From the NCBI GenBank assembly GCA_049288275.1, contig JBAQHK010000251.1, forward strand, positions 1-48,751: 48,751 bases of DNA. Direction: 5' to 3'. This DNA comes from a bacterium. GTDB lineage: Bacteria > Arandabacterota > Arandabacteria > Arandabacterales > Arandabacteraceae. Under the pieces are notes generated by a model. That model made no database searches. It was not told the DNA's origin and worked only from the letters and a program-made list of their open reading frames with translations. Each line of letters opens with the position of its first letter. Position 1 is the first letter of the stretch. Below, piece by piece: positions 18,501 through 43,993 of this stretch. Position numbers and translations under genes: made by a program.

Positions 18501-20710
18501 GGAGAGCGCCGCGCGACAACGTTCCGCTTCCCGATCTGGTGGTGATCTCGGGGGAGGTGACGTTTGAGCCCGAGCGGCCGAGGCAGGGTGACGTGATGAC
18601 GATCGGCGTTCGCCTGGCCAACGTGGGGCACGCCTCGGCGGACCAATTCTCGGTGAGGGCGTTCAACGATCAGGTCGACGATTCCCTCGCCATAGGGGCA
18701 GCGGTGGTGCCACACCTCGCAGCCAAGAGCGACACCACGATCCGGTTTCAGTGGACCGTGCCCGGGGGCTCGCCGACGCGCCTTGTCTCGGTGGCCGTGG
18801 ACGGCGAGGAGGCGGTCCTCGAGCGCTCCGAGTTCAACAACCTGGCTAAGCAGCGCTTCTATCTTTCTGTCGCCGATCTCAGCGTGGAACTCGCCGGGGT
18901 TGAGCCCTTCCCTCCGGCGGTCGGCGACAGCGTGACGGTCCTCGCCTCGGTGGCCAACACAGGCGCAGACGTTGCTCGATCCTTCCAGGTCTCTTTCTAC
19001 GACAGCGCCGTGACCGACGGGCGACGCTTCGCGAGGGTAAGCCTGGACTCGCTGGCGCCCGGCGATCGCGCCGACCTCGAGGTCCGCTACGAGGTAGGAC
19101 GTTTCCAGGGCGACGCGGTTGATCTCGTGTGCGTGGCCGATCCCGACCGGAGCGTGCTGGAGTACTATCTCAGCAATAACCTGTCGCGGTTCAAGCTGAA
19201 CTCGGGAATCGCCGGCGAGATCGTCACCTTCCCGGAGGAGATCCGGCCTTCGAGCGTCAGATCCTCCCGGACGGGGCTGGTGCTGTACTCGCCTCTTTGC
19301 GACTGCGTCTTTGTCGCCAAGGCCCAGGCGCCGAACGACATCCTCTTCGGCACCGCCGGGGCCGACCCGGACGTATCGTGGAACACGGCGGTCTTCTCAT
19401 CCGAGGGCGACATCGCTGGCTACGATCTGGCTGCCGGCATGCCCTTTGTGGTGAGCGCGACCGCCGACAGTGAGAGCCAGCCTGCGGTCTGGGGCACGAA
19501 CATCGCCTGGATCTCGGAGTCTACGGATTCCGCCAGGGTGATGCTCAAGCGAGGCAGCGGGCCGGCCCTGGCGATTCGCTCGTCGGCAGCCGGATTGCTC
19601 GCAGCCCCGGACATATCCCGCGACCTGGTGGTGTGGATGGAGGGCCAGGCCGGCGGGGGGGACATCTGGGGTTACGATCTGGGCGCCGACAGCGTCTTCG
19701 CGATCCGGGTAGCGGCAGGCGATCAGGCCGATCCCAGGGCCTGGGGACGTGTGGTGGTTTGGGAGGATCGCACCAGGGACGCCGGTGACGTCCACGGGCT
19801 GGATGCCGGCTCGGGCAGGCAGTTTGTTGTCGCCGAGCAGCCCTCTGCCCAGCAGAGACCGGACATCTGGGGTGATCTGGTGGTCTGGCAGGACCTGAGG
19901 AGCGGCAATTGGGACATCTACGGATACAGCATGGCCGACCTCAGGGAGTTTCCCGTGTCGCGACAGACGGGCCCGCAGGTCGAGCCCTGCATCAACGAGA
20001 GCACGGTGGTGTGGGTGGATCGCAGAGAGCAGACCCCCAGGCTGATCGGCCTGCGGTTCGGCGGCAACCGCGCGGTGGCGGATGTGCGCAGCTTCGAGGC
20101 TCTCTCCCAAGACGCCTTGATAAGAGTCGCGATGGAGATCAGGGAGCGAGAGGATGCGGTGTCCTACAAGCTCTATCGCCACGTCGAGGACAAGTGGGAG
20201 CCCGGCGACCCGGCGGTGACCGTCCGGGAGTACTTCACCCTGGACGGGGACTCGCTGCACGTGTACCCGGACACCATGGTCACCGAACGGACCCAGTACC
20301 ATTACAGGCTCGGGGTGCTCGACGCGTATGGGGAGGAGACGGTCTACGGGCCGGTGGGCGGCCAGGCTTTCCGCAGGGCCCCCAAGGGCTTCGTCGTAGG
20401 CAGCCCCTACCCCAATCCTTTCCTCGATCAGGTCAACGTGTCGTTCGGGCTGCCGAGGAGAGTGGGGCGCTCGGAGGAGGTCTCTTGGCCCGATCCGTCT
20501 CAGGAGCCGAGCGAGGTGGAGGTCAGGGTCTACTCGGTGACCGGCAGGCTCGCCCGCACCGTCAAGGCGGCCACCATGACGCCGGGCTACTACCGCCTGA
20601 CCTGGGACGGCAGGAACGACAGGGGCGTTCCGGTCTCGCCCGGAGTCTACTACTTCACCGTGACCGCGCCCGGCTCTTTCGGCTCGCGCAAGGTGATCCT
20701 GCTGCGCTAG
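15554..20710 (+). CDS. 1718-aa secreted multidomain M6 (immune inhibitor A-like) metalloprotease with FG-GAP/VCBS propeller, CARDB-like domains, second W-x-D/E propeller and Por/FlgD-type C-terminal domain
   Basis: Signal peptide. HEMGHLLGLPD zinc motif (His codon 16310). Eight D-x-D-G-D-G..GWP repeats about 48 aa apart (nt 17297-18493). PDLVV..ANVG CARDB-like units. Repeats like DLVVWQD..WDIYGYS. C-terminal domain from nt 20405 (PNPF..VYYFTV). Confidence 0.85.
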   Translation: MRPATSLVAHAVAILAILAVSAAVCGPTLAAPPRPDRLQELCDQGRLDEARQVLEEDRSAAYALGPMLAQGAARSGSPVALVLLVDFSDTPADTILHSRSWFDRMLFDSAGGTSMRSFYLANSYGTLDITGKVYGWFRVKEKMAYYADARRGMGGYPKNAQKMIEDAVAAADPFVDFSKFDNDGPDGIPSSGDDDSVVDHLLVVHAGQGYEWTMNSADIHSHAGTVRGKVADGVTVRPYATEPEEGKVGTFAHEMGHLLGLPDLYDVSLNTFGLGMWSLMAYGMWGGGDGSEPVGLDAWSKAEMGFVTPVSLAANATGLRLPCVEDGPDVLRLWSEGRSGSQYFLVENRRAKSSDSYLSKLGEGLLVYHVDERYRDNSSEAGHLVSLEQADGRFDLDQQRIFGFGSDAGDPFPGSSAARTFSWWTVPDSRSNEGLPTEVTIRNIGNAADTAVLDVEVRSPVILFESSKVEDGAGDGDGEPDPGERVALGIRFRNHGIECSDVEVTLSSADPFISLVTPTATLSSVEGGGLSSYLEFEMLIDQATPQPHNVEFALDIGGVSEVGPYASSDRFVLAVPLRRLAGWPQHTGSTIFASPAVADIDGDGSKEIVVGNYAGLVYAWKTDGRLLPGWPVDLGFRTTSKAAICDINVDGSPDVVVASQDGRVHALGADGVPLPGWPQATGEAVVSSPALGDIDDDGIVEIICGSKDGKVYAWNQDGTPVEGWPVETGGQAVWMSPAVADCDEDYVPEVVVGGYGGQLCIFEGDGSLKSGWPILFGWGCGEGAPAIADFDGDGRVEIVVSGLFSNSIYLVDVDGVVRAGWPRWAYNCSSLSSPIPADIDGDGLPEIAVATSCGTMVAWNADGTKCESIPVATSQLIEYCEPLFMDLDGNGEMDCLVGTAGPGTGSVRAFTREGPMIGFPIAVEGAVWATPAVGDLEDDGHAEIVLATTTGDVHVWRFVGARAAGKIEWSQSRGDLWNTGVYGRAPRDNVPLPDLVVISGEVTFEPERPRQGDVMTIGVRLANVGHASADQFSVRAFNDQVDDSLAIGAAVVPHLAAKSDTTIRFQWTVPGGSPTRLVSVAVDGEEAVLERSEFNNLAKQRFYLSVADLSVELAGVEPFPPAVGDSVTVLASVANTGADVARSFQVSFYDSAVTDGRRFARVSLDSLAPGDRADLEVRYEVGRFQGDAVDLVCVADPDRSVLEYYLSNNLSRFKLNSGIAGEIVTFPEEIRPSSVRSSRTGLVLYSPLCDCVFVAKAQAPNDILFGTAGADPDVSWNTAVFSSEGDIAGYDLAAGMPFVVSATADSESQPAVWGTNIAWISESTDSARVMLKRGSGPALAIRSSAAGLLAAPDISRDLVVWMEGQAGGGDIWGYDLGADSVFAIRVAAGDQADPRAWGRVVVWEDRTRDAGDVHGLDAGSGRQFVVAEQPSAQQRPDIWGDLVVWQDLRSGNWDIYGYSMADLREFPVSRQTGPQVEPCINESTVVWVDRREQTPRLIGLRFGGNRAVADVRSFEALSQDALIRVAMEIREREDAVSYKLYRHVEDKWEPGDPAVTVREYFTLDGDSLHVYPDTMVTERTQYHYRLGVLDAYGEETVYGPVGGQAFRRAPKGFVVGSPYPNPFLDQVNVSFGLPRRVGRSEEVSWPDPSQEPSEVEVRVYSVTGRLARTVKAATMTPGYYRLTWDGRNDRGVPVSPGVYYFTVTAPGSFGSRKVILLR

Positions 20711-23357: not shown

Positions 23358-23635
23358 GCGGGTCGTGCTAGACGGGGAGGTAGCGGTGCCCTGTAACCCG
23401 CAACCCGCTACAGCGGGGTTGAATTCCCTTCTGAGGTCTTCGTTTCTTGGGAAGGCGGCGGGACAAGTGGCGTTGAAGGCCAGGTCCTGCGCAATGAAGA
23501 CTTGTGAACCCCGTCAGGACCGGAAGGTAGCAGCGGTAAACAGGAAACTTCATGTGCCGCAGGGTCACCTGGTTGGAGCCGGCTGTCTCGCAGGCGTCCG
23601 GGGGGCAAGATCGGGGAAGGGTGCACGACCCAAGC
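23358..23635 (+). ncRNA. ffs: signal recognition particle RNA, large (Alu-domain-containing) bacterial type
   Basis: Domain IV motif GTCAGGACCGGAAGGTAGCAGCGGTAA (23513-23539). Helix 5 pairings CCAGGTCCTGCG/CGCAGGGTCACCTGG and ATGAAG/CTTCAT. Alu-like GGTGCCCTGTAACCCGC..GCTAC. Closing pair GGGTCGTGC (23360)/GCACGACCC (23623). Sits upstream of dnaX. Ends are approximate. Confidence 0.8.
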
Positions 23636-26522: not shown

Positions 26523-27098
26523 ATGTCGCAAGCGGTAGAGATCCGGTGGCACGGCAGGGGAGGGCAGGGCGCGAAGACCGCCGCTTTCCTGCTTGCCGAG
26601 TCACTGATAGACCAGGGCAAGTACGCCCAGGGCTTTCCCGATTACGGCCCGGAACGCATGGGCGCTCCGATCAGAGGCTACAACAGGATCAGCGACGAGC
26701 CGGTGAGGCTCCACTGTGACGTCAGGCGCCCCGACATCGTGGTGGTGCTGGACCCCACGCTGATAGGGACCGACGACATCACCTCAGGCCTGGCCGAGGA
26801 CGGCGTGGTGCTGGTGAATTCCACCGAGCCCGCGGCCGACTTGAGGGCCCGGCTCAAGCTCCAGGGGCGGAAGGTCTACACCGTAGACGCCGAGGGAATC
26901 GCGCTCAAGGAGATCGGCCGGCCGATCCCCAACTCCCCGATGATAGGCGCGCTCCTGAAGGTCAGGCCTCTCTCGGACATCGCGAGCATGGAAGCGATAG
27001 TCTCCAAGAAGTTCGAAGCCAAGTTCAGCGAGAAGGTTGTCAGCGGCAACTTGAGGGCGATGCGCAGGGGATACGAGGAGGTCAGAGGCGAGAAATGA
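26523..27098 (+). CDS. porG: pyruvate/2-oxoacid:ferredoxin oxidoreductase gamma subunit
   Basis: RWHGRGGQGAKTAA motif, about 190 aa, first gene of a gamma-delta-alpha-beta set. Confidence 0.88.
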   Translation: MSQAVEIRWHGRGGQGAKTAAFLLAESLIDQGKYAQGFPDYGPERMGAPIRGYNRISDEPVRLHCDVRRPDIVVVLDPTLIGTDDITSGLAEDGVVLVNSTEPAADLRARLKLQGRKVYTVDAEGIALKEIGRPIPNSPMIGALLKVRPLSDIASMEAIVSKKFEAKFSEKVVSGNLRAMRRGYEEVRGEK

Positions 27099-27403
27099 AG
27101 AAGCGTGGCTGGAAAGAGCTTGCTATAGGCGGAAGGATAGACGTCGCCGGCAACGCCGCGGAGTACGAGACCGGCTCCTGGCGCACCTTCCGTCCGGTCA
27201 AGAGTGAAGAGAAGTGCACCCACTGTCTGAGATGTTGGATCTACTGCCCCGACTCCGCCATCAAGGTCAAGGACGGCAAGGTCGTGGGGTTCGATCTGGA
27301 TCACTGCAAGGGTTGCGGGATATGCGCGGACGTATGTCCTCCGAAGGTGCACGCTATCGAGATGGTGCGCGAGTCGGAGATGAAGCAGAAGGAGCAGAAG
27401 TAA
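27095..27403 (+). CDS. porD: pyruvate:ferredoxin oxidoreductase delta subunit (2x[4Fe-4S])
   Basis: CTHCLRCWIYCP and CKGCGICADVCP. The stop overlaps the porA start (TAATG). Confidence 0.88.
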   Translation: MKKRGWKELAIGGRIDVAGNAAEYETGSWRTFRPVKSEEKCTHCLRCWIYCPDSAIKVKDGKVVGFDLDHCKGCGICADVCPPKVHAIEMVRESEMKQKEQK

Positions 27404-28596
27404 TGAAGACCCTGACCACAAAGACAAAGATGGCGCTGACCGGGAACGACGCCGTGGCCGAGGCCATGCGGCAGATCAATCCCGACGTCGTGGCCGCCTA
27501 TCCCATAACTCCCCAGACCGAGCTGATGCACAAGTTCGCAGACTACGTGGCCGACGGGGACGTCAAGACCGAGTTCGTGCTTGTGGAATCGGAGCACAGC
27601 GCGATGAGCGCGGCGGTGGGCGCCTCCGCGGCCGGCTCGCGGGTTGTGACCGCCACCTCGGCCAACGGGCTGGCCCTGATGTGGGAGATCCTGTACATAG
27701 CGGCTTCCACCCGCTGCCCGATCGTGATGGCCGACGTCAACCGGGCCCTCAGCGCTCCTATCAACATCCACTGCGATCACAGCGATTCCATGGGCGCGAG
27801 GGACGCCGGCTGGATCCACCTGCATTCCGAGAATTCCCAGGAAGCTTACGACAACATGGTCCAGGCTGTGAGGATCGCGGAGGACCGGCAGGTGTTGCTG
27901 CCGGTGATGGTGTGCCTCGACGGATTCATCTTGAGCCACACCCTGGAGCCGGTGGAGATCCTCGACGACAAGACCGTGCGTGACTTCATAGGCGAGTTCA
28001 GGCCTGTCCACAACCTGCTGGACAACGACAAGGCCATGACCTTCGGGCCTCTTGATTTCCACGACTACTACTTCGAGCACAAGATACCGCAGATCGTGGC
28101 GATGAGGCAGGCCTTCGGAGTGATCGACAGCGTGGCCGCGGAGTTCGAGAAGCTGAGCGGCAGGAAGTACCAGCACGTCGAGGAGTATCGCACCGCCGAC
28201 GCCGAGCGCGTGGTTGTGGCTCTCGGTTCAACCTGCGGCACCGCCAAGTGGGTGGTGGACCATCTGAGGTCCCGGGGCGAGAAGGTCGGCCTTCTCAAAG
28301 TGAGGACCTTCCGGCCCTTCCCCTACCATCTGGTGCGGCGGGCTCTGGCGGGCGCCAAGGCCGTGGCCGTGCTCGACCGCTCCCATTCCTTCGGAGCTCA
28401 GGGCGGACCGGTCTCGATTGAGGTCAGGGCTGCGCTCTATCACCACGCGTCGATTCCGACCAAGAACTACATTTACGGCCTGGGCGGCCGCGACGTTTCG
28501 GCCGAGCAGATTGAGCAGGCGTTCGAGGAACTCAAGACCCTTGCCGCGACCGGCAAGAGCTCAGACGACATCGGTTTCCTGGGCCTGAGGGAATAG
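27403..28596 (+). CDS. porA: pyruvate:ferredoxin oxidoreductase alpha subunit
   Basis: LTGNDAVAEAM..VVAAYPITPQTE, ESEHSAMSA; about 397 aa from ATG 27403. Confidence 0.9.
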   Translation: MKTLTTKTKMALTGNDAVAEAMRQINPDVVAAYPITPQTELMHKFADYVADGDVKTEFVLVESEHSAMSAAVGASAAGSRVVTATSANGLALMWEILYIAASTRCPIVMADVNRALSAPINIHCDHSDSMGARDAGWIHLHSENSQEAYDNMVQAVRIAEDRQVLLPVMVCLDGFILSHTLEPVEILDDKTVRDFIGEFRPVHNLLDNDKAMTFGPLDFHDYYFEHKIPQIVAMRQAFGVIDSVAAEFEKLSGRKYQHVEEYRTADAERVVVALGSTCGTAKWVVDHLRSRGEKVGLLKVRTFRPFPYHLVRRALAGAKAVAVLDRSHSFGAQGGPVSIEVRAALYHHASIPTKNYIYGLGGRDVSAEQIEQAFEELKTLAATGKSSDDIGFLGLRE

Positions 28597-28606
28597 GAGG
28601 ACTGAG

Positions 28607-29572
28607 GTGGCTAAGATAGGTCTCAAGGAGCTTTCCAAGCGAGAGGATCTCTTGTCCGGCGGGCACAGAGCCTGCGCCGGCTGCGCGGCGACCATGGTTG
28701 TGAGGCAGGTGCTCCTGGCGGCCGGCAAGGACACGGTCGTTGGCTGCGCCACAGGTTGCCTCGAGGTGGTCACCACCATCTTCCCGTACACCGCGTGGAA
28801 GATACCGTTCATCCACAACGCGTTCGAAAACGTGGCGGCCACGGTGAGCGGGGTGGAAGCGTCCTACAAGTCCTTGAAGCGCCAGGGCAAGATCACCAAG
28901 GACATGCGCTTCATAGCCTTCGGAGGCGACGGCGGGACTTACGACATCGGCCTCCAGGCCTTGTCGGGTGCGGCCGAGCGGGGCCACAGGATGCTCTACA
29001 TCTGCTACGACAACGAAGCCTACATGAACACCGGCATTCAGCGCTCGAGCGCCACGCCTCTGGGCGCCGCGACGTCCACTTGCCCGTCGGGCGACGTGAT
29101 CCCGGGCAAGCAGCAGTACACCAAGGACATGACCAAGATAATGATCGCCCACAGGATTCCCTACGTGGCGCAGGCCTCTCCGAGCCATTGGTCGGACCTG
29201 GTGGAGAAGGTCCAGACAGCGCTCTCCAAGGACGGCCCGACCTTCATCAACGTGCTGGCCCCGTGTCATCGCGGGTGGCGCTATCCGATGGAGAAGACCG
29301 TGGAGATGGCGAGGCTTGCGGTTGAGACCTGCTACTGGCCGCTCTACGAATACGATGAGGGGACCTGGCGGATAACCTACACCCCAAAGGAGAAGCTGCC
29401 CCTTACCGAGTGGACCGGCAGGCAGGGCAGGTTCGCCCACCTCAAGGACAAGCCGGAGTTGCTTGCCAGGGGTCAGGCCGAGGTTGATCGGCGCTGGAAC
29501 GAAATCAACGCTCTTGCCGGCATCGGCAATCTGTGCGAGAGCCCTTGGAAGGAAGGTAAGAGCGCGGCCTGA
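28607..29572 (+). CDS. porB: pyruvate:ferredoxin oxidoreductase beta subunit (TPP-binding)
   Basis: CAGCAATMVVR and GGDGGTYDIG..YDNEAYMNTG TPP motif. GTG after GGAGGA. Confidence 0.9.
   Translation: MAKIGLKELSKREDLLSGGHRACAGCAATMVVRQVLLAAGKDTVVGCATGCLEVVTTIFPYTAWKIPFIHNAFENVAATVSGVEASYKSLKRQGKITKDMRFIAFGGDGGTYDIGLQALSGAAERGHRMLYICYDNEAYMNTGIQRSSATPLGAATSTCPSGDVIPGKQQYTKDMTKIMIAHRIPYVAQASPSHWSDLVEKVQTALSKDGPTFINVLAPCHRGWRYPMEKTVEMARLAVETCYWPLYEYDEGTWRITYTPKEKLPLTEWTGRQGRFAHLKDKPELLARGQAEVDRRWNEINALAGIGNLCESPWKEGKSAA

Positions 29573-33739: not shown

Positions 33740-33743
<4 letters not shown>
33078..33743 (+). CDS. recX: recombination regulator RecX
   Basis: Position after recA. Repeated three-helix units (RS..ELR.RL...G). 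ATGA overlap with alaS. Confidence 0.75.
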
Positions 33744-36341
<2,598 letters not shown>

Positions 36342-36358
<17 letters not shown>

Positions 36359-36563
36359 CGACCCGGCCAAGACGGGCCGGGCGGTCGCCTGCCAGTGGAA
36401 GTGCGGCGTGTGCGGGGCGGTCTGCGGCGAGGATGCCCTGAGGGAAGACCCTTCGGGCTTCACCATCGACCGGTCGAGGTGCTCGAAGTGTATGGCCTGC
36501 GTGGAGTCGTGCCCGGCGGGACTGGTGCCGGCAGGACTCGTGGGAGGAGACCGGGTTGGCTGA
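36342..36563 (+). CDS. small 4Fe-4S ferredoxin (about 73 aa)
   Basis: GTG 36342, 17-nt overlap with alaS. CQWKCGVCGAVC plus canonical CSKCMACVESCP. 8-nt overlap with the downstream reductase. The longer track ORF from 36171 lies inside alaS. Confidence 0.65.
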
Positions 36564-37731
36564 TTTTGACGTCGCCGTTGTGGGTGCCGGGTGCTCGGGA
36601 CTGTGGGCTGCGGTGACCGCTCGGCGCGGCGGCGGTCGAGTCCTGCTGCTTGAGCGCAACGCCGGGATCGGCGAGCGAATCCTGTGCGCCGAGGGAGTCG
36701 GGCGGGCGGGCTTGTCGGCCCTGATGCCGGTGAGGCCCGAGTGGATCGCCGAGCCCGTGGACGGAGTGTTTTTCCGGGCGCCCGGGGGACAGCGGGCAGA
36801 GATCAGGGAGCCGGGCGCCGGATTCGTCGCCCACAAGGAGATTGTGCTCCGCGACCTGGCCGGTGCGGCCGCCGAGGCCGGCGTGGAGATCCGGCTGGGC
36901 TGCGAGGTCCGCGATCTCAGGCAGGCGGGCCCGAGGGAGTGGTCGGTGGAGATCGCGACCGGTTCCGGCGTGACCACGGTGAGCTGCGGCTCGGTGGTGG
37001 GCGCCGACGGCATAGAGTGCCGGATCGGGCGACGGCTGGGCATCAAGCGCGCCCTGAAGCGCAGCGACTTGTTCTTGTGCGCCCAGTACACGGTCGCTCC
37101 GGTGGATGCCCCTGTCGGGGCGATAGAGATTCACCTGGGACGCGAGGTGGCGCCGGGAGGATATGCCTGGGTCTTTCCCAAGGGGGAAGGGGTCGCCAAC
37201 GTGGGGTTGGGAGTGCTTGGTGAGCCGGGAGGCCGGCCTGCGGTGGAGTACCTCAAGCGGTTCGTGCGGGCCCGATGCCCGGAGTCGAAGATAGTGAAGG
37301 CGGTGGTCGGGGGCGTGCCCTCGGAGCGAGAGCCCTTCAAGGCCTCGGCCGGCGGGGTTTTCCTCGCGGGTGATGCGGCCCGCATGCCCGATCCGGTCTC
37401 GGGTGCCGGAATCGTTCCTGGAATGGCGTCCGGCGAGGTTGCCGGCCGTCACGCTCTGCGTCATGCCCTGGGCCAGTCCGACCTTGAGGCCGGCGACAGA
37501 GAATTCGCGAAGGCCATGAGAGCAATGTCGGCGGACAGGAAGGTGCACTGGGCCCTGAGGCAGGCGCTCACGCGCATGAGCGACAAGGACCTCGCGAAGA
37601 TGGTGGCGCTGATCGGGGACTATGCAGGCAGGGGTCTGTCCTTGAGGAGCAATCCGATGGCGTTCGTGGGTTTCCTTGCCAGGAAGATGCCGACATGCTT
37701 CAGACTTGCCCGGCATCTTGTGGGGGTCTGA
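36556..37731 (+). CDS. geranylgeranyl reductase family FAD-dependent oxidoreductase
   Basis: DVAVVGAGCSGLWAA dinucleotide fold, ILCAEGV, GGYAWVFPKGEGVANVGLG, FLAGDAARMPDPVSGAGI, all hallmarks of the GGR family. TTG start. Confidence 0.8.
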   Translation: MADFDVAVVGAGCSGLWAAVTARRGGGRVLLLERNAGIGERILCAEGVGRAGLSALMPVRPEWIAEPVDGVFFRAPGGQRAEIREPGAGFVAHKEIVLRDLAGAAAEAGVEIRLGCEVRDLRQAGPREWSVEIATGSGVTTVSCGSVVGADGIECRIGRRLGIKRALKRSDLFLCAQYTVAPVDAPVGAIEIHLGREVAPGGYAWVFPKGEGVANVGLGVLGEPGGRPAVEYLKRFVRARCPESKIVKAVVGGVPSEREPFKASAGGVFLAGDAARMPDPVSGAGIVPGMASGEVAGRHALRHALGQSDLEAGDREFAKAMRAMSADRKVHWALRQALTRMSDKDLAKMVALIGDYAGRGLSLRSNPMAFVGFLARKMPTCFRLARHLVGV

Positions 37732-37732
37732 C

Positions 37733-38506
37733 GTGGGACGTACCTATCAGTCGGTGCTCGAGGTGGCCGGGAGCCGGGGCTCGGGTTACGTGGTGCTCCT
37801 GGACCCCGACAAGGCTCCGGCCGATGACCTGGGCCGCCAGGCCGAGCTCGCCTCCAGGCACGCGGATTTCATATTCGTCGGCGGCAGCCTCTGTGTCAGG
37901 CACGACTTTGACCCCGCCGTCAAAGCAGTCAAGGCCGCCTCCGGGGTTCCGGTGGTGATCTTCCCCGGGGATTCCACCCAGGTTTCGGCGCACGCCGACG
38001 CTCTGCTCTTCCTGAGCCTGGTCAGCGGCAGGAACGCCGATCTCCTGATAGGGGAGCACGTCAAGGCCGCCCCGATCATCAAGCGTCAAGGGCTGGAAGT
38101 CATACCTGTTGCCTACATGCTGGTCGAGTCCGGCCGGATGACCTCGGTGCAGTTCATGAGCCAGTCGCTGGCGATTCCCAGAACCAAGCCGGAGATAGCC
38201 ATGGCTCATGCCCTGGCCGGGGAGTACCTCGGCATGAAGTTGGTCTACATGGACGCCGGCAGCGGGGCCCAGGATCACGTGCCTGTTGAAATCATTGAAG
38301 CGGTGAGCAAGTATGTGTCGATACCGGTAGTGGTGGGCGGAGGCATACGCACTCCCCGCCAGGCCGAGGCGGTTGCGAAGGCCGGGGCGTCCCTGGTTGT
38401 GACCGGCGACGTGATAGAGCAGACGGGCTCGGCGGCGCTCCTGAAGGAGCTCGCCGACGCGGTTCACCGGTTGCCTTCGCGGTCTGCCGGCCCCGAAAGG
38501 AGCTGA
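37733..38506 (+). CDS. (hepta/geranylgeranyl)prenylglyceryl phosphate synthase, PcrB/GGGPS family
   Basis: TIM-barrel GGGPS/PcrB pattern: VLLDPDK, FIFVGGS, VVIFPG, FLSLVSGRN, VPVAYMLVE, KLVYMDAGSGA, VVVGGGIR. GTG starts 1 nt after the reductase stop. Confidence 0.8.
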   Translation: MGRTYQSVLEVAGSRGSGYVVLLDPDKAPADDLGRQAELASRHADFIFVGGSLCVRHDFDPAVKAVKAASGVPVVIFPGDSTQVSAHADALLFLSLVSGRNADLLIGEHVKAAPIIKRQGLEVIPVAYMLVESGRMTSVQFMSQSLAIPRTKPEIAMAHALAGEYLGMKLVYMDAGSGAQDHVPVEIIEAVSKYVSIPVVVGGGIRTPRQAEAVAKAGASLVVTGDVIEQTGSAALLKELADAVHRLPSRSAGPERS

Positions 38507-39576
38507 TCGCTACGCGAGCTCTGATCCTGAGTGGAGGCAAGGGCACGAGGTTGAGGCCCATCACCCACACCAGCGCGAAGCAGCTTGTGCCGATCGCCAA
38601 CAAGCCGATCCTGTTCTACGGGATCGAAGCGATCCGAGACGCCGGGATAGCCGACATAGGGATCGTGGTCGGTGACACCGCTGCGGAGATTGAGGCCGCG
38701 GTGGGCGATGGGTCGAAGTTCGGAGTCAAGGTGACCTACATCCGGCAGGACGCTCCTCTGGGGCTCGCCCACGCGGTGAAGGTGGCCCGGAAGTTCATCG
38801 AAGACCAGCGCTTCGTGATGTACCTAGGCGACAACCTGATCATCGAGGGCATAACCGACTTCGTACGCAAGTTCGAGAGCGGTGCTGCCAACTGCCAGAT
38901 ACTGCTGGCTCACGTGCCCAACCCCCAGGATTTCGGGGTGGCGGAGCTGGAGGGGGACCGGGTGACGCGCCTGGTGGAGAAGCCGCGCGAGCCCAAGACC
39001 GATCTCGCGCTGGTGGGCGTGTACATGTTCGACAGGACGGTCTTCGAGGCCGCCGAGGCGATCGGGCCTTCCTCCCGGGGCGAGCTGGAGATCACCGACG
39101 CGATTCAGCGCCTTATAGACTGCGGGCTGGATGTCCAGTGCCAGGTGATAACCGGCTGGTGGAAGGACACCGGCAAACTGGAGGACATCCTCGAGGCCAA
39201 CGGGATGATACTGGGCAGGGCGGAGACCAGGATCGAAGGCCACCTGGACTCCAAGAGCCGGGTGGACGGCAAGGTGATCCTGGAGAAGGGTTGCCAAGTG
39301 GTGAACAGCGTCCTGAGGGGGCCGCTGGTGATCGGCGAGCGCTCGCGGATAGTGGACTCGTACGTGGGGCCCTTCACCTCGGTCTACTACGACGTCGAGA
39401 TAAGAGGCAGTGAGATCGAGCACAGCATAGTGCTCGAGGGCAGTCGGATCGTGGACGTGCGGGGCAGAATCGAAAGCAGCCTGGTGGGCAAGAACGTTGT
39501 GATCGAGCGGCACGACCAGCCGCCCAAGGCCAACAGATTCATGGTGGGCGACTACAGCCGCATTCAGCTGGAGTAG
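38503..39576 (+). CDS. rfbA: glucose-1-phosphate thymidylyltransferase, long form with LbH C-terminal domain; start codon uncertain (no in-frame ATG/GTG/TTG before the GxGTRL motif)
   Basis: LILSGGKGTRLRPIT..KQLVPIANKP nucleotidyltransferase motif begins at nt 38521, upstream of the first canonical start (TTG 38551). C-terminal left-handed beta-helix hexapeptides. 38503 is a CTG overlapping the upstream TGA. Confidence 0.8.
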   Translation: MIATRALILSGGKGTRLRPITHTSAKQLVPIANKPILFYGIEAIRDAGIADIGIVVGDTAAEIEAAVGDGSKFGVKVTYIRQDAPLGLAHAVKVARKFIEDQRFVMYLGDNLIIEGITDFVRKFESGAANCQILLAHVPNPQDFGVAELEGDRVTRLVEKPREPKTDLALVGVYMFDRTVFEAAEAIGPSSRGELEITDAIQRLIDCGLDVQCQVITGWWKDTGKLEDILEANGMILGRAETRIEGHLDSKSRVDGKVILEKGCQVVNSVLRGPLVIGERSRIVDSYVGPFTSVYYDVEIRGSEIEHSIVLEGSRIVDVRGRIESSLVGKNVVIERHDQPPKANRFMVGDYSRIQLE

Positions 39577-39581
39577 AAGCT

Positions 39582-40442
39582 TTGAGGATCATGGTGACCG
39601 GTGCGGGGGGCATGTTGGGCCGCGATCTCGTCGGGGTGCTGGAGGCCGAGCACGAGGTGCTGGCCCGGGACCTGGCCGACTTCGACGTGACCGACCACGA
39701 CGCGACCGTTCGCGCGGTGAGCGATGTCCGGCCCGAGGTGGTGGTCCATCTTGCGGCCTTCACCGACGTCGAGGCCTGCGAAGACAACCGGCAGCAGGCG
39801 TTCAGACTGAACGCCCTGGGTTCGATGAACGTGGCCGCGGGGGCCCGCGAGGTGGGGGCCTACCTGGTCTATCTGAGCACCGACTACGTGTTCGACGGCC
39901 GCAAGTCCGATCCCTATCTGGAGATCGACGAGCCCAGGCCGCTCAACTTCTACGGGCTGACCAAGCTCTACGGCGAGAGATACGTCAGGGAACTGACGAC
40001 AAAGCATCTGATAGTGAGGACGTCGTGGCTGTTCGGGCCGCACGGCCGGAATTTCGTGGATAGCATAGTGGCCAAGGCCTCACGCGGGACCAGACTGATA
40101 GTGGTCAGCGACCAGCGCGGTTGCCCAACCTACACGCTGGACCTGGCCAGGGGGATCGCGGCCGCGGTGGCGAAGGGCCTGGAAGGCGTGGTGCACATCA
40201 CCAACACCGGAAGCACCACGTGGTACGATCTCGCGAAGCTGGCGCTTGAGCTGGCGGGGCTCGCCGCGCCCATAGAGCCGGTCTCCAGCGGCCAGTACCC
40301 CACCAAGGCCCGCAGGCCGGCTTACTCGGTGCTGGCCAGCCTGGTGCTGGAGCCGAGCGGCATCGCGGCTCTGCCCTCCTGGAGGGACGGCGTCAAGGAC
40401 CACCTGCGGAGAAAAGGCATGCTGGCCAAGGCCTGCGCATGA
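39582..40442 (+). CDS. rfbD: dTDP-4-dehydrorhamnose reductase
   Basis: MVTGAGGMLG Rossmann, STDYVFDG, PLNFYGLTK catalytic YxxxK. Alternative start ATG 39591. Confidence 0.88.
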   Translation: MRIMVTGAGGMLGRDLVGVLEAEHEVLARDLADFDVTDHDATVRAVSDVRPEVVVHLAAFTDVEACEDNRQQAFRLNALGSMNVAAGAREVGAYLVYLSTDYVFDGRKSDPYLEIDEPRPLNFYGLTKLYGERYVRELTTKHLIVRTSWLFGPHGRNFVDSIVAKASRGTRLIVVSDQRGCPTYTLDLARGIAAAVAKGLEGVVHITNTGSTTWYDLAKLALELAGLAAPIEPVSSGQYPTKARRPAYSVLASLVLEPSGIAALPSWRDGVKDHLRRKGMLAKACA

Positions 40443-40458
40443 GAGGCGGGACGGCGCG

Positions 40459-41055
40459 ATGAGAAGAGGATCGAAAGACGGCGGAGATCGCTGGGTCAGG
40501 GATTCGCTGGAGGAGGCGGGTGGGGTCCTTAGGGACACCGCGGCTTCGTGCGAAGTCGAGATAGGCGCGGCCGCCAGGCTGGTCGCAACCGCGTTGCGTC
40601 GGGGCGGCAAGGTGCTGCTTTGCGGCAACGGGGGCAGCGCCGCGGACGCTCAGCACGTCGCCACGGAGATGACCGTGAAGATGAAGAAGGTGCGGTCGCC
40701 GATGGCCGCGATCGCGCTTACCGCCAACAGCTCACTGTTGACGGCGCAGGCCAACGATCTCGGGTTCGACACCGTCTTCTCCAGGCAGATCGAGTCCCTG
40801 GGCCGGCGCGGGGACGTGCTTGTGGCGATAAGCACCAGCGGCCGGTCCGCCAACGTGCTCAAGGGCGTGGCGGCCGCCAGGAAGATGGGAATAAAGGTGA
40901 TAGGGCTGGCTGGTTGCGGGGGCGGGAAGCTCGCTCCCTTGTGTGACGTGGGGATCGTGGTGCCGTCCGACCAGGTTCCTCGCGTTCAGGAGGCTCACAT
41001 CGCGATATGCCACCTGATCTGTGAGTTCGCGGAGGCCTCGCTTTTCGGCCGTTAG
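40459..41055 (+). CDS. gmhA: SIS-domain D-sedoheptulose-7-phosphate isomerase (GmhA family)
   Basis: LLCGNGGSAADAQHVATEM, VLVAISTSGRSANV, QEAHIAICHLI. Confidence 0.85.
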   Translation: MRRGSKDGGDRWVRDSLEEAGGVLRDTAASCEVEIGAAARLVATALRRGGKVLLCGNGGSAADAQHVATEMTVKMKKVRSPMAAIALTANSSLLTAQANDLGFDTVFSRQIESLGRRGDVLVAISTSGRSANVLKGVAAARKMGIKVIGLAGCGGGKLAPLCDVGIVVPSDQVPRVQEAHIAICHLICEFAEASLFGR

Positions 41056-41071
41056 GGAGAGGGTGAATCCA

Positions 41072-41524
41072 ATGAAGGACGTGCTCGAGACCATCGTCGG
41101 TGTCGCCGTCGGCGCCAGCAAGATGAAGAACTTCCTGCTGATAGTGTTCAGCGTGGTGCTCGGCGTTGCCGGGCAGTTCGCGCTCAAGTACGGCGTGGAA
41201 GCTGCCTCCAGTCAGCCATCCTCCAGGATCACCGAGTCCCTGGATGCAAAGTCCATGATCACCTTCTTCCACAGCGCGGCAACCAACAAGTTCGTGATTC
41301 TCGGGTTCGCGCTGTACCTCGTAAGCGCCCTCAGCTGGCTGATAATACTGTCGAGGGTGGATCTCAGTTTCGCCTATCCTCTGATAAGCATAGGGTACAT
41401 ACTGATCATGGTGCTGTCCAAGTACATATACAATGAACCGCTCACACCCCTGAAGATAGCGGGCACGCTTCTGGTGTGCGCCGGGGTGTTCCTGTTGGTG
41501 AGGTCCCAGGGAGGCGGGGCGTAG
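41072..41524 (+). CDS. small EamA/SMR-fold membrane protein (ArnE/ArnF-like putative polyprenyl-phosphate-sugar flippase subunit)
   Basis: About 150 aa with 4 predicted TM helices (LGVAGQFALKYG.., AYPLISIGYILIMVLS..). Function inferred from fold family and context only. Confidence 0.55.
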   Translation: MKDVLETIVGVAVGASKMKNFLLIVFSVVLGVAGQFALKYGVEAASSQPSSRITESLDAKSMITFFHSAATNKFVILGFALYLVSALSWLIILSRVDLSFAYPLISIGYILIMVLSKYIYNEPLTPLKIAGTLLVCAGVFLLVRSQGGGA

Positions 41525-41528
41525 GGAC

Positions 41529-42167
41529 GTGACCAGACCGAAGCCTGTTGTGATAGGCATGGCCGGGGGCACCGGGTCGGGGAAGACCACGGTGGCCACG
41601 ATAGTCAAGTCCCGCTTCAGCGAGGAGAACGTCACCATAATCCATCACGACTCCTACTACCGCGACAGGAGCGACCTGGCGTTTGAGGAGAGGGAGAGGC
41701 TCAACTACGACCATCCGTCGGCTTTCGAGAACGATCTGCTGGCGGCCCAGATTCGCGACCTCGTCGGCTGGCGCGCTGTGGACATGCCGGTGTATGATTT
41801 CTCCACTCACTCGCGCCTGGCCAGGCGGAGGCCGTTGGGGCCCTCGCAGATAGTCCTGCTGGAAGGCATACTGGTGCTGGCGGATGAGGCGCTTCGCTCC
41901 CTGATGGACATAAAGATCTACATCGAGGCGGACTCCGACGAGCGGTTCATAAGGCGGCTCTTGCGCGACATGAAGGAGCGGGGAAGGGACGCGGACTCGG
42001 TGATAGATCAGTACGTGACCACGGTCAGGCCGATGCACCTGCAGTTCGTGGAGCCGACCAAGAGGTACGCCGACATCATCATTCCGCATGGCGGACACAA
42101 CGCGGTCGCGATCGATCTGCTGGTGACAAAGATCCGCGACGTGCTGAGGGAGAGCGGGAATGAGTAA
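41529..42167 (+). CDS. udk: uridine kinase
   Basis: VIGMAGGTGSGKTT P-loop, NYDHPSAFE, RFIRRLLRD. Confidence 0.88.
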   Translation: MTRPKPVVIGMAGGTGSGKTTVATIVKSRFSEENVTIIHHDSYYRDRSDLAFEERERLNYDHPSAFENDLLAAQIRDLVGWRAVDMPVYDFSTHSRLARRRPLGPSQIVLLEGILVLADEALRSLMDIKIYIEADSDERFIRRLLRDMKERGRDADSVIDQYVTTVRPMHLQFVEPTKRYADIIIPHGGHNAVAIDLLVTKIRDVLRESGNE

Positions 42168-43053
42168 GTTCATCGCTTACGTTGAGTGCCTGCGGCCCGG
42201 CCAGTGGACCAAGAACCTGGTGGTGCTTGCCGCGGTGATCTTCTCCCGGAACATGTTCGTCCCCGACATGGCCCTGAGAAGCCTGGCGGCTCTGGGCATA
42301 TTCTGCCTGCTGGCGGGCTCCGTCTACGTGTTCAACGACCTCGCCGACATCAAGCGGGACAGGCTGCACCCCGAGAAGTCCAAGCGGCCCATAGCGAGCG
42401 GCAGGGTCTCCAGGACCGGCGCGTTCACGCTCGGCTGCTCCGCGGCGGTGGTGGGGCTGGCCCTGGCCTGGGCCCTCGGGACTTCATTCCTGCTTGTGGC
42501 GGGGATCTACTTCGTGCTGATAACCGGCTACTCGATGGGGCTCAAGAACGTGGTGGTGCTGGACGTGATGATCATCTCCATCGGTTTCATCCTGCGCGCG
42601 ATCGCGGGGGTGGAGGCCCTGAAACCGCTGGATCCGGGCGTGGTGATTTCGCCGTGGCTGCTGGTGTGCACCCTGTTCCTGGCGCTCTTCCTGGGCTTCA
42701 ACAAGCGCAGGCACGAGTTGGGCCTCCTGGCCGAAGGCGCCGGCGATCACCGCAGGAGCCTCATGGAGTACTCCAAGGAGTTTCTGGACGCGATGATCGC
42801 GGTCGTGACCGCCTCCACGGTCATAGCCTACTCGATCTACACCATCTGGCCCGCGACCGTGGAGAAGTTCGACACCACCAATCTGATCTACACCGTGCCC
42901 TTCGTGGTCTTCGGCCTGTTCAGGTACATGTACCTGGTGATCATGAAGAACCGGGGCGGCAATCCGTCGGAAGTGCTGATCTCGGACCTGCCCATCTTGG
43001 CCGACATCGCCGTCTGGATCGTCGTGGTGGCACTGGTCCTCTACACCTCCTGA
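42160..43053 (+). CDS. UbiA-family prenyltransferase resembling decaprenyl-phosphate 5-phosphoribosyltransferase (DPPRS)
   Basis: LRPGQWTKNLVVLAA, NDLADIKRDRLHPEKSKRPIASG, GLKNVVVLDV..ILRAIAGV, NKRRHEL..RRSLMEY. These parallel the mycobacterial Rv3806c-type sequence as I recall it. Confidence 0.7.
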   Translation: MSKFIAYVECLRPGQWTKNLVVLAAVIFSRNMFVPDMALRSLAALGIFCLLAGSVYVFNDLADIKRDRLHPEKSKRPIASGRVSRTGAFTLGCSAAVVGLALAWALGTSFLLVAGIYFVLITGYSMGLKNVVVLDVMIISIGFILRAIAGVEALKPLDPGVVISPWLLVCTLFLALFLGFNKRRHELGLLAEGAGDHRRSLMEYSKEFLDAMIAVVTASTVIAYSIYTIWPATVEKFDTTNLIYTVPFVVFGLFRYMYLVIMKNRGGNPSEVLISDLPILADIAVWIVVVALVLYTS

Positions 43054-43054
43054 C

Positions 43055-43993
43055 ATGGAAGCCGCAAGGCCGACCCGATCGCTCGTGCTCTCCGCCAACG
43101 CAAAGGTCAACCTGTTCCTCAGAGTCAGGGGCCTGCGCGCCGACGGCTATCACGAAATCGAGACCGTGTATCACTCGATCTCGCTTGCCGACACCCTGAC
43201 CGTGACTGAGCAGTGCGGTCGGATCTCGGTGACATCGGACGGCGCGGCTGTTCCCCTCGACCGGTCCAATCTGGCGGTGAGGGCGGCCGCCGCGCTGATG
43301 GAGCCCGCCGGGGCACCGGTGGCTGAAGGGCCGGGGGCGCGGGGTGGGAGCGGGCCGCGGCGTTCGGGCGTGCGTATCCACATAGCCAAGAGAATCCCCA
43401 TCGGCGCCGGCTTGGGTGGCGGGAGCGCCGACGCGGCGGCCGCCCTGGTGGGCGTCAATCGGCTGCTGGGCCTGGGCAGGTCCGGGGCGCAGCTCGAGGC
43501 CCTTGCCGAAGGGCTTGGGGCAGACGTCAAATTCATGTTGCGTGGCGGCTGCGCAGTCGGAAGGGGCAAGGGGAGCGATCTCCAGCCCGCCGCCTGCCTG
43601 CCTGCTCTGCCGGTGGTGGTGGCCGCGCCCCAGGTAACCATAAGCACGGCTTGGGCTTACCAGGCGCTCAAAATCAGGTTGACAACGCGGGAATCCCAAC
43701 TTACTATGGTGACTAGCGCTCTCGAGAAGGGAGACGTCGCGGCTGTGTGCGGCCTTCTCCAGAACGATTTCGAGAGATTGGTTTTTGACGAGTTTCCGGT
43801 AGTTAGGAGTCTGAAGGACGCGCTGATCGGGTGCGGGGCGATCGGCGCCCTGATGTCCGGTTCGGGTTCTTCGGTTTACGGCGTATTCTTGGAGGAGGGT
43901 GCGGCCATGGCCGCCGCGGAGCGGTTGGCCGGGCTCGGTTGTGAGGTAGGGCTTGCTGCTTTTGCTGTACGGGGCGTGACGACTCCCAGGTGA
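43055..43993 (+). CDS. ispE: 4-diphosphocytidyl-2-C-methyl-D-erythritol kinase
   Basis: KVNLFLRV.G.R.DGYHEI, GHMP kinase motif IPIGAGLGGGSADAAA. Has a G/P/R-rich insertion before motif 2. Confidence 0.9.
   Translation: MEAARPTRSLVLSANAKVNLFLRVRGLRADGYHEIETVYHSISLADTLTVTEQCGRISVTSDGAAVPLDRSNLAVRAAAALMEPAGAPVAEGPGARGGSGPRRSGVRIHIAKRIPIGAGLGGGSADAAAALVGVNRLLGLGRSGAQLEALAEGLGADVKFMLRGGCAVGRGKGSDLQPAACLPALPVVVAAPQVTISTAWAYQALKIRLTTRESQLTMVTSALEKGDVAAVCGLLQNDFERLVFDEFPVVRSLKDALIGCGAIGALMSGSGSSVYGVFLEEGAAMAAAERLAGLGCEVGLAAFAVRGVTTPR

Follow-up and report, generated by a model that had tools for sequence, protein, structure and literature searches.

Bacteria that belong to the Fibrobacteres-Chlorobi-Bacteroidetes (FCB) superphylum encode active geranylgeranylglyceryl phosphate synthase (GGGPS) and digeranylgeranylglyceryl phosphate synthase (DGGGPS), plus geranylgeranyl reductases (GGRs) (Villanueva et al. 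2021, PMC7852524). According to that survey the two synthases occur together in many FCB phyla and are co-localised only in Cloacimonetes, where both have been validated biochemically and where neither CarS nor a glycerol-1-phosphate (G1P) dehydrogenase is found. Here we describe a trio of chained genes, encoding a small ferredoxin, a GGR-family flavoenzyme and a GGGPS, that lies directly behind alaS on a bacterial contig of 48,751 nucleotides (JBAQHK010000251.1; this whole stretch is called the window below, and all positions refer to it unless a locus is named). Sequence comparisons make it fairly likely that the trio works as a module which synthesises isoprenoid-glycerol ether lipids in a lineage of Candidatus Eisenbacteria, within the FCB superphylum.

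The locus resembles the FCB and Cloacimonetes set in its FCB host, its group II GGGPS, its GGR related to the euryarchaeal lipid reductases, the presence of a gene of the methylerythritol phosphate (MEP) pathway and the lack of a visible CarS or G1P dehydrogenase gene (here within 48.7 kb). Unlike that set, the partners of its GGGPS in the chain are a ferredoxin and a GGR in place of a DGGGPS, of which the 48.7 kb hold none, and the module is predicted from its genes. Eisenbacteria stand outside the phylum list of the survey (PMC7852524).

In archaea, the GGR of Methanosarcina acetivorans needs a neighbouring ferredoxin for chain saturation in Escherichia coli (Isobe et al. 2014, as reported in PMC4244643 and PMC9385802), and GGR-ferredoxin synteny is common in Euryarchaeota according to the same two papers, which place the ferredoxin gene on different sides of the GGR gene, one upstream and the other downstream. 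The window shares with the M. acetivorans pair, compared by description and not by sequence, a small ferredoxin-like protein encoded next to the GGR, and differs from it in the bacterial host, in the first Cys motif of the ferredoxin (CxxxCxxCxxxC) and in the third gene of the unit, the GGGPS. The PcrB of Bacillus subtilis (group Ib) is, like the window synthase, a bacterial enzyme of the PF01884 family associated with an isoprenoid-G1P ether; it is only very distantly related to the window synthase and differs from it in its group (I), in its C35 substrate and in lacking an associated reductase. GGGPS homologues of Bacteroidetes and Bacillales, the GGGPS, DGGGPS and GGR of Cloacimonetes and other FCB bacteria, and the archaeal GGR-ferredoxin pair are thus already published, and our literature searches found no paper on ether lipids of Eisenbacteria and none that describes a ferredoxin-GGR-GGGPS unit in bacteria or a ferredoxin::GGR fusion.

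Organisation of the locus

The trio and the gene in front of it are listed here (aa, amino acids; ORF, open reading frame).

33740-36358, + strand: alaS, alanyl-tRNA synthetase, 872 aa (ORF; 61-72% identity to AlaS of Eisenbacteria metagenome-assembled genomes)
36342-36563, + strand: small ferredoxin, 73 aa with 8 Cys (Pfam Fer4 and Fer4_9; conservation)
36556-37731, + strand: GGR-family flavoenzyme, 391 aa (TIGR02032, PF22578, PDB 3OZ2)
37733-38506, + strand: group II GGGPS, 257 aa, GTG start (NF003198, TIGR01769, PDB relatives)

The order on the + strand is alaS, ferredoxin, GGR and GGGPS, and successive genes are joined by overlaps of 17 and 8 nt and then separated by a gap of 1 nt, as stated in the original prediction, which had been made from the letters of this DNA alone and had placed three chained ORFs directly behind alaS. 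The alaS stop codon (TAG, 36356-36358) lies inside the ferredoxin gene, whose GTG start at 36342 has a Shine-Dalgarno-like GGAGAG 7 nt upstream; from the alaS overlap to the first Cys, that frame offers no other start codon. The ferredoxin's own stop (TGA, 36561-36563) overlaps the GGR gene, which starts at TTG 36556 behind a Shine-Dalgarno-like GGGAGGAG and stops at TGA 37729-37731, and GTG 37733 starts the GGGPS gene. The synthase had been given 258 aa; it has 257 (258 codons with the stop), since position 37730 reads GAC, which is no start codon, and the resulting protein is identical to database entry P0001. A scan of 31-45 kb found no terminator-like or promoter-like site inside the trio (overall counts being no higher than in shuffled sequence), and co-transcription and translational coupling of the three genes with alaS are probable. 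The window has about 64% GC and carries nearly all its genes on the + strand.

The synthase

On the family models the synthase scored 274.9 bits with NF003198 (cut-off 247) and 199.4 bits with the GGGP model TIGR01769 (cut-off 161.55), matched PF01884 at E=7.5e-39, and reached 23.6 bits on the heptaprenylglyceryl phosphate synthase model NF003197 (cut-off 260). Comparison with solved structures gave 177 bits to the Flavobacterium johnsoniae enzyme (Fj; 4JEJ) and 162 bits each to those of Methanothermobacter thermautotrophicus (Mt; 4MM1) and Thermoplasma acidophilum (6JO3), against 39.7 bits to the group I enzyme of Archaeoglobus fulgidus (2F6U) and 28.8 bits to the heptaprenyl PcrB 4NAE. By these scores the protein is a group II GGGPS and not a heptaprenyl PcrB, and the earlier assignment to the GGGPS type is borne out.

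The AGSGA, GGGI and VVTGD loops are invariant or nearly so in the homologue alignment and align to the Mt and Fj enzymes. With these two (groups IIa and IIb, respectively) the window enzyme shares the phosphate-binding GSG and GGG loops, a Thr instead of Asn in beta-alpha-8, which is the group II state according to PMC9385802, and a Val/Ile limiter: the Val in 'DSTQVS' aligns to the limiter residues Mt V86 and Fj I90 on helix alpha-3'. A small residue at this proposed group II limiter position is consistent with a C20 substrate, the limiter itself being called poorly defined in the review (PMC9385802). At the aromatic-anchor position the window enzyme has Phe, typical of hexameric enzymes, and differs in this from the dimeric GGGPS of Flavobacteriales, which have a charged anchor residue (PMC7888582).

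The reductase

The second protein belongs to the GGR family (TIGR02032, 174.4 bits, cut-off 158.8; catalytic domain PF22578 GGR_cat, E=4.4e-22), and its best specific models are two for archaeal digeranylgeranylglycerophospholipid reductases, NF041160 (148 bits) and NF041080 (91.5 bits), followed by BchP/ChlP (74 bits) and MenJ (50 bits). Among proteins of solved structure it matched best the lipid reductase of T. acidophilum (TaGGR, PDB 3OZ2; 142 bits, E=2.4e-40, residues 2-363), and the Sulfolobus GGR (SaGGR) gave 70.8 bits. A reductase of the bacteriochlorophyll or menaquinone type is therefore not indicated, in line with the original prediction, which had named a GGR with GAGxxG, YAWVFPK and GDAA motifs; all three are present. 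The motifs, read by the definition of PMC6309074 (YxWxFPx7-8GxG etc.), are the FAD-binding GxGxxG (GAGCSG), the catalytic Cys (ILCAEG), YAWVFPKGEGVANVGLG and GDAARMPDPVSGAG, and GAGCSG, ILCAEG, YAWVFPKGEGVANVGLG and GDAARMPDP are kept throughout the clade as well as in both TaGGR and SaGGR. With 3OZ2 the window GGR shares, at about 28% identity, the FAD motif, the catalytic Cys, YxWxFPKGEG and GDAARxxDPxxGxG.

In a rough, distance-based neighbour-joining tree, which held no ChlP, BchP or MenJ sequences (the comparisons with those rest on the hidden Markov model scores given above), the bacterial GGRs linked to a ferredoxin fall together with the Thermoplasma enzyme and apart from the Sulfolobus GGR, and the Eisenbacteria clade, the TA06 homologue and the GGR of contig L085 form a longer branch. 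The GGRs of three other bacterial loci described below (L081, L037 and L047) stand nearer to TaGGR (39-43%) than does the window GGR. One GGR-family representative of 568 aa (P0407) has a C-terminal membrane domain that by eye resembles lipoprotein signal peptidase (LspA).

The ferredoxin

The 73-aa protein matches Pfam Fer4 at E=2.4e-8 and the dicluster model Fer4_9 at 27.8 bits (cut-off 27). Its first motif, C17-x3-C21-x2-C24-x3-C28 (CxxxCxxCxxxC), is one residue longer than the canonical one, and its second, C47-x2-C50-x2-C53-x3-C57-P, is the canonical CxxCxxCxxxCP. The protein is homologous to the ferredoxin domain of natural ferredoxin::GGR fusions, which are described below, and is presumably the electron donor to the GGR.

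Conservation in relatives and age of the arrangement

A GGGPS profile scan over one genome per GTDB species yielded 80 loci (L001-L080), in which the window proteins were then located by tblastn. The nearest GGGPS loci (63-75% identity) are from Candidatus Eisenbacteria metagenome-assembled genomes (MAGs) or from MAGs classified no further than 'bacterium', and RecA and AlaS of the window are 76-87% and 61-72% identical, respectively, to those of the nearest MAGs. The order alaS-ferredoxin-GGR-GGGPS was found in 12 of the species-representative MAGs (L001-L006 and L008-L013) and in two closer metagenome contigs, L087 and L088, so the juxtaposition of the trio is not due to chance. The alaS orthologue of L087 carries the Pfam calls tRNA-synt_2c, tRNA_SAD and DHHA1 in the JGI annotation.

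The small ORF, whose reality the original prediction had made depend on its conservation, is real: the 8 Cys occur in all 14 close relatives that cover the region. Direct inspection found the 8-Cys ORF in 12 of the 12 GTDB loci, including L010 and L011, where tblastn had missed it, and it is present at L087:2672-2882 and L088:167-347. All 8 Cys are kept in 15 of 15 ferredoxins of the clade, with C-x-W-x-C-G-x-C-x-x-V-C as the common first motif, after which the Pro is frequently missing. The JGI annotations of L087 and L088 leave the ferredoxin ORF uncalled and show the region as an intergenic gap, and the L087 protein has a tandem duplication in its first motif (CEWRCEWRC). Pairwise ratios of nonsynonymous to synonymous substitution (dN/dS) between the window, L087 and L088 are 0.22-0.44 for the ferredoxin, 0.22-0.25 for the GGR, 0.11-0.14 for the GGGPS and 0.13 for alaS; by these values, all three genes of the trio are maintained by purifying selection.

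In 73 loci the DNA extends far enough upstream, and in 52 of these alaS immediately precedes GGGPS, usually as recA-recX-alaS-GGGPS; this adjacency spans Eisenbacteria, Zixibacteria, KSB1, Latescibacterota, Gemmatimonadota, Fibrobacterota, Cytophagia and Edwardsbacteria. Judged by this distribution, the alaS-GGGPS adjacency is ancestral in the FCB superphylum, and GGGPS is old at its position, the arrangement being the common one in FCB bacteria. More distant Eisenbacteria (L022, L024, L029, L034, L039 and others) have alaS-GGGPS without a GGR, and the ferredoxin-GGR pair stands between alaS and GGGPS only in one Eisenbacteria subclade, either by insertion or by differential retention. In Marinimicrobia there is no alaS upstream of GGGPS and gmhA directly follows it; in several Zixibacteria loci gmhA also directly follows GGGPS and alaS is kept upstream.

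The original prediction had located the unusual feature in the coupled ferredoxin-reductase-synthase unit and its operon context. The housekeeping context is the ancestral FCB one and not special to this genome, and the trio is not unique either, recurring in Poribacteria and in the lineage of L037.

Association of ferredoxin and GGR in other bacteria

The next GGR homologues (34-39% identity) are on bacterial contigs. In L081 to L084 the GGR gene stands between a UbiA gene and a CDP-alcohol phosphatidyltransferase gene, a ferredoxin is called as an ORF in L081 and appears as a tblastn match in L083 and L084, and L085 has a ferredoxin-GGR pair. Ferredoxin adjoins GGR in 15 loci of the Eisenbacteria clade and in L044, L047, L081 and L085. 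The pairs at L081:4854-7796 and L083/L084:4808-7703 are flanked by a UbiA-family protein of 305-321 aa and by the CDP-alcohol phosphatidyltransferase. The L081 UbiA-family protein, which found no NCBIfam match and, by phmmer, no PDB match, has homologues in L037 and in the Poribacteria clusters as well (305-355 aa across L081, L083, L037 and L044), of which those of L083 and L037 gave only weak and mixed NCBIfam matches. In Candidatus Edwardsbacteria a canonical 61-aa 2x[4Fe-4S] ferredoxin is encoded between alaS and GGGPS (L046:9807-9992).

Two Candidatus Poribacteria chromosomes (L044 and L047; 5618-10738) carry, in this order, genes for a DGGGPS-like UbiA, a SpoU methylase, a ferredoxin, a GGR and a GGGPS. 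The same cluster holds a further, unclassified UbiA, and its GGR frame is interrupted, by one in-frame stop in L047 and as a shortened ORF in L044, which may reflect sequencing error or a pseudogene. In an uncultured bacterium (L037:7718-10750, with LpxD upstream) a DGGGPS-like UbiA, a 474-aa ferredoxin::GGR fusion and a GGGPS are contiguous, which by gene content would amount to a compact 'archaeal lipid' operon in a bacterium. The DGGGPS-like proteins of L037 and Poribacteria score 232-245 bits on the DGGGPS model NF009521 (cut-off 296), L037 having 245, and their close homologues are named geranylgeranylglycerol-phosphate geranylgeranyltransferase by NCBI and JGI. GGGPS and a DGGGPS-like gene are accordingly co-localised outside Cloacimonetes, contrary to the 2021 survey (PMC7852524).

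An exhaustive search with the window GGR covered 1.84 billion cluster representatives, of which the best 150 were examined. Eight of these 150 (P0367, P0377, P0387, P0421, P0426, P0428, P0444 and P0477; L089 and L090) are ferredoxin::GGR fusions with an N-terminal domain containing two CxxCxxCxxxCP motifs, and the gene for P0377 stands on a bacterial contig beside that for ribosomal protein bS20. Such recurrent fusion is strong comparative evidence that ferredoxin and GGR work together. In addition, GGR and GGGPS are neighbours, amid different surroundings, in at least four separate lineages, namely the Eisenbacteria subclade, TA06, Poribacteria and L037. The trio had been read in the original prediction as pointing to the synthesis of saturated isoprenoid-glycerol ethers; the results for the synthase, the reductase and the small ORF all favour this reading, and the natural fusions add support.

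Neighbouring genes and the wider window

Window genes were scanned with Pfam and NCBIfam, except recA, recX and alaS, which were identified by translation and tblastn. Three features outside the trio are listed here, the first and the last of them as context only.

38506-39576, + strand: rmlA, long-form glucose-1-phosphate thymidylyltransferase (TIGR01208, 443 bits; start inferred)
42160-43053, + strand: UbiA-family prenyltransferase of the decaprenyl-phosphate phosphoribosyltransferase type, the sole UbiA in the window
26523-29572, + strand: four-subunit 2-oxoacid:ferredoxin oxidoreductase, gamma, delta-ferredoxin, alpha and beta (Pfam POR, Fer4, POR_N with PFOR_II, TPP_enzyme_C)

The UbiA protein was considered as a DGGGPS and rejected, as it reaches 279 bits on NF008977 (cut-off 234) against 32 on the DGGGPS model NF009521, and as PDB 8J8J, a decaprenyl-phosphate phosphoribosyltransferase, is matched at E=3.4e-31.

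The stretch 38551-43993 encodes rmlA, rmlD, gmhA, a small ArnE/F-like EamA protein, udk, the decaprenyl-phosphate phosphoribosyltransferase-like UbiA and ispE, a set kept in all Eisenbacteria loci, which we class as envelope-glycan and polyprenyl-phosphate genes; ispE belongs to the MEP pathway, which supplies isoprenoid precursors. When rmlA is read from TTG 38551, the TIGR01208 alignment begins at model position 13, and the in-frame peptide encoded upstream of this codon, IATRALILSGGKGTRL, has no ATG, GTG or TTG in the window. There is likewise no ATG, GTG or TTG upstream of the nucleotide-binding LSGGKGTRL, and the conserved N-terminus I-A-T-R-A-L-I-L-S-G-G begins at ATC 38506; the equivalent codon is ATA in L087 and L088, L088 too having no ATG, GTG or TTG there, and the JGI gene call in L087 took a TTG within the stretch as the start. 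A non-canonical ATC start with a 1-nt overlap with the GGGPS stop (TGATC) is thus probable for rmlA, and suggests translational coupling to GGGPS.

The oxidoreductase, 7 kb upstream of the trio, shows ferredoxin-based redox metabolism and might supply the organism with reduced ferredoxin, and any link of it to the trio is speculation. The contig is bacterial, since it carries a bacterial large signal recognition particle RNA (23363-23628, upstream of dnaX-ybaB-recR). It also encodes a bacterial eRF1-like protein (baeRF family 10; 2955-4070), a 1718-aa secreted-type protein with M6 peptidase, FG-GAP, CARDB and FlgD-Ig domains (15554-20710) and seven tRNA genes.

Proposed route and evidence on both sides

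We propose that the group II GGGPS forms an ether bond between glycerol phosphate and a C20 geranylgeranyl chain supplied by geranylgeranyl diphosphate (GGPP), and that the GGR, which depends on FAD, then hydrogenates C=C bonds in the prenyl chain or chains. The 8-Cys ferredoxin would pass low-potential electrons to the GGR flavin, as in the M. acetivorans GGR with its neighbouring ferredoxin. The final lipid would be a saturated monoether or, should the genome encode a DGGGPS at another place, a diether of the archaeol type.

Several observations weigh against this route. The partnership is not obligatory in gene order, as the TA06 locus L016 has GGR-GGGPS without a ferredoxin and the Edwardsbacteria locus L046 has alaS-ferredoxin-GGGPS with no GGR in its 14.8 kb. 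From recA (31933) to spoVG (44652) there are 15 genes with every gap at most 50 nt; because this whole string is as tight as the trio, packing says little on shared function, and the functional argument rests on the associations across lineages. As to the proteins, the first Cys motif of the ferredoxin has a non-canonical spacing. The GGR falls far under the equivalog cut-offs (148 versus 780 bits on NF041160, the Thermoplasmatales equivalog, and 91.5 versus 580 on NF041080) and is for that reason placed as a family member that would act like a lipid GGR, not as an archaeal orthologue. Like every homologue of the Eisenbacteria clade and TA06, it has S-G-A-G in place of the archaeal GGG, which is present in L037, L047, L081, L083, TaGGR and SaGGR. 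The window GGGPS reads Y-M-D-AGSG (about residues 172-178), unlike the Y-L-E-AGSG of the Fj, Mt and other characterised group II enzymes, and most of its clade relatives carry Phe for the Tyr. Finally, the Pfam and NCBIfam scans found no DGGGPS, G1P dehydrogenase (EgsA/AraM) or CarS in the 48.7-kb window, and tblastn detected none of the three in the relatives' flanks (at most 10 kb on each side).

The altered synthase motif is of interest in itself, as the Tyr and Glu of Y-x-E-AGSG have been proposed to act in catalysis and in G1P stereospecificity (PMC9385802). Among the 106 of 120 top homologues in which the motif was readable, F-L-E occurs in 79 and Y-L-E in 11, and Asp replaces Glu in 12. 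We compared the motif and not residue numbers, the numbers Y134/Y178/E180 given for the Mt enzyme in PMC9385802 clashing with the numbering of 4MM1 (Y172/E174; W141 is consistent). The altered Y-x-E may have a bearing on the use of G1P versus glycerol-3-phosphate (G3P) in bacteria without a G1P dehydrogenase.

The missing pathway genes decide nothing, because Cloacimonetes lack CarS and G1P dehydrogenase as well and the FCB synthases are mostly not co-localised. The gene content of the 48.7-kb window is compatible with a diether or a monoether and with either stereochemistry of the glycerol phosphate.

Alternative explanations

A plausible variant of the proposed route, though we hold it to be the less probable one, ends in a product that stays monoalkyl. 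The trio would then make only a (partly) saturated geranylgeranyl- or phytanyl-glycerol phosphate, to be dephosphorylated, acylated, acetylated or glycosylated into a minor, specialised lipid in place of an archaeol-type membrane diether. DGGGPS-like queries gave no tblastn match in the window or in the flanks of 12 Eisenbacteria relatives (again at most 10 kb each side), the sole UbiA of the window is of the decaprenyl-phosphate phosphoribosyltransferase type, and where a lineage possesses a DGGGPS-like gene (L037, L044 and L047), this gene stands next to the module. A precedent comes from Bacillus, whose GGGPS homologue feeds a monoether pathway through heptaprenylglyceryl phosphate (PMC9179154). 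However, a distant DGGGPS is the rule in FCB bacteria, since co-localisation with GGGPS was reported only from Cloacimonetes (PMC7852524), and the window is a small part of the genome. A profile search with the DGGGPS-like proteins of L037 and Poribacteria was uninformative on Eisenbacteria, the best 120 matches listed being all Poribacteria-like.

It is unlikely that the GGR and the ferredoxin act on another polyprenyl, be it the menaquinone side chain, the polyprenyl-phosphate sugar carrier of the downstream glycan genes or free GGPP, and that GGGPS is their neighbour by packing only. What speaks for it is the promiscuity of the GGR family, which takes in quinone and dolichol reductases (PMC10821996, PMC6309074), and the even tightness of the whole recA-to-spoVG string; in addition, every Eisenbacteria locus has envelope-glycan and polyprenyl-phosphate genes behind GGGPS, and the GGR reaches no equivalog cut-off. 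Against this, GGR stands beside GGGPS in the four or more separate lineages with different surroundings, the same GGR clade is found elsewhere beside DGGGPS-like or CDP-alcohol phosphatidyltransferase genes, and the MenJ score (50 bits) compares poorly with that on the archaeal lipid reductase model (148 bits). Moreover, the Eisenbacteria L022, L024 and L039 keep the same downstream glycan genes without a GGR, so the GGR does not co-vary with them.

An assembly chimera, archaeal contamination or a very recent and functionless horizontal transfer, which the archaeal character of the gene families and the GC of the 36-38 kb bin (0.686 versus about 0.64 for the window) might suggest, is extremely improbable, and contamination and chimerism are ruled out by synteny (the same order in 14 independent assemblies with bacterial flanks, and alaS-GGGPS across FCB phyla), by codon composition (GC3 of 0.81 for GGR and 0.79 for GGGPS, within the range of the neighbours) and by purifying selection on all three genes, with overlapping stop and start codons binding the trio to alaS.

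A more specific form of the monoether product, which we regard as a long shot, is that this subclade has no DGGGPS and that the trio makes a saturated monoalkyl (phytanyl-type) glycerol phosphate, perhaps on G3P in keeping with the altered Y-x-E, that would serve as an anchor or carrier for the downstream glycan genes (rmlA, rmlD, gmhA, the ArnE/F-like flippase and UbiA). If true, archaeal ether-lipid chemistry would here be put to a bacterial use that resembles neither archaeol nor the Bacillus case.

Implications

Returning to the ether-lipid module that we favour, the kind of pathway has already been described in related bacteria, and the window is a new and well-conserved example of it. 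New in detail are the dedicated and sometimes fused ferredoxin, its variant first Cys motif, the altered Y-x-E of the synthase, the deep alaS-GGGPS synteny and the co-localisation of GGGPS with a DGGGPS-like gene outside Cloacimonetes. The archaeal-type ether-lipid genes of FCB bacteria are thereby extended to Eisenbacteria, and the chain-saturating GGR appears in bacteria with a ferredoxin of its own, adjacent or fused. The recA-recX-alaS-GGGPS synteny is independent evidence, from gene order, that GGGPS has been inherited vertically from a time before the FCB radiation. The three genes, which span about 2.2 kb, would bear on the debate on the 'lipid divide'; current views are strengthened and refined by these findings and not overturned.

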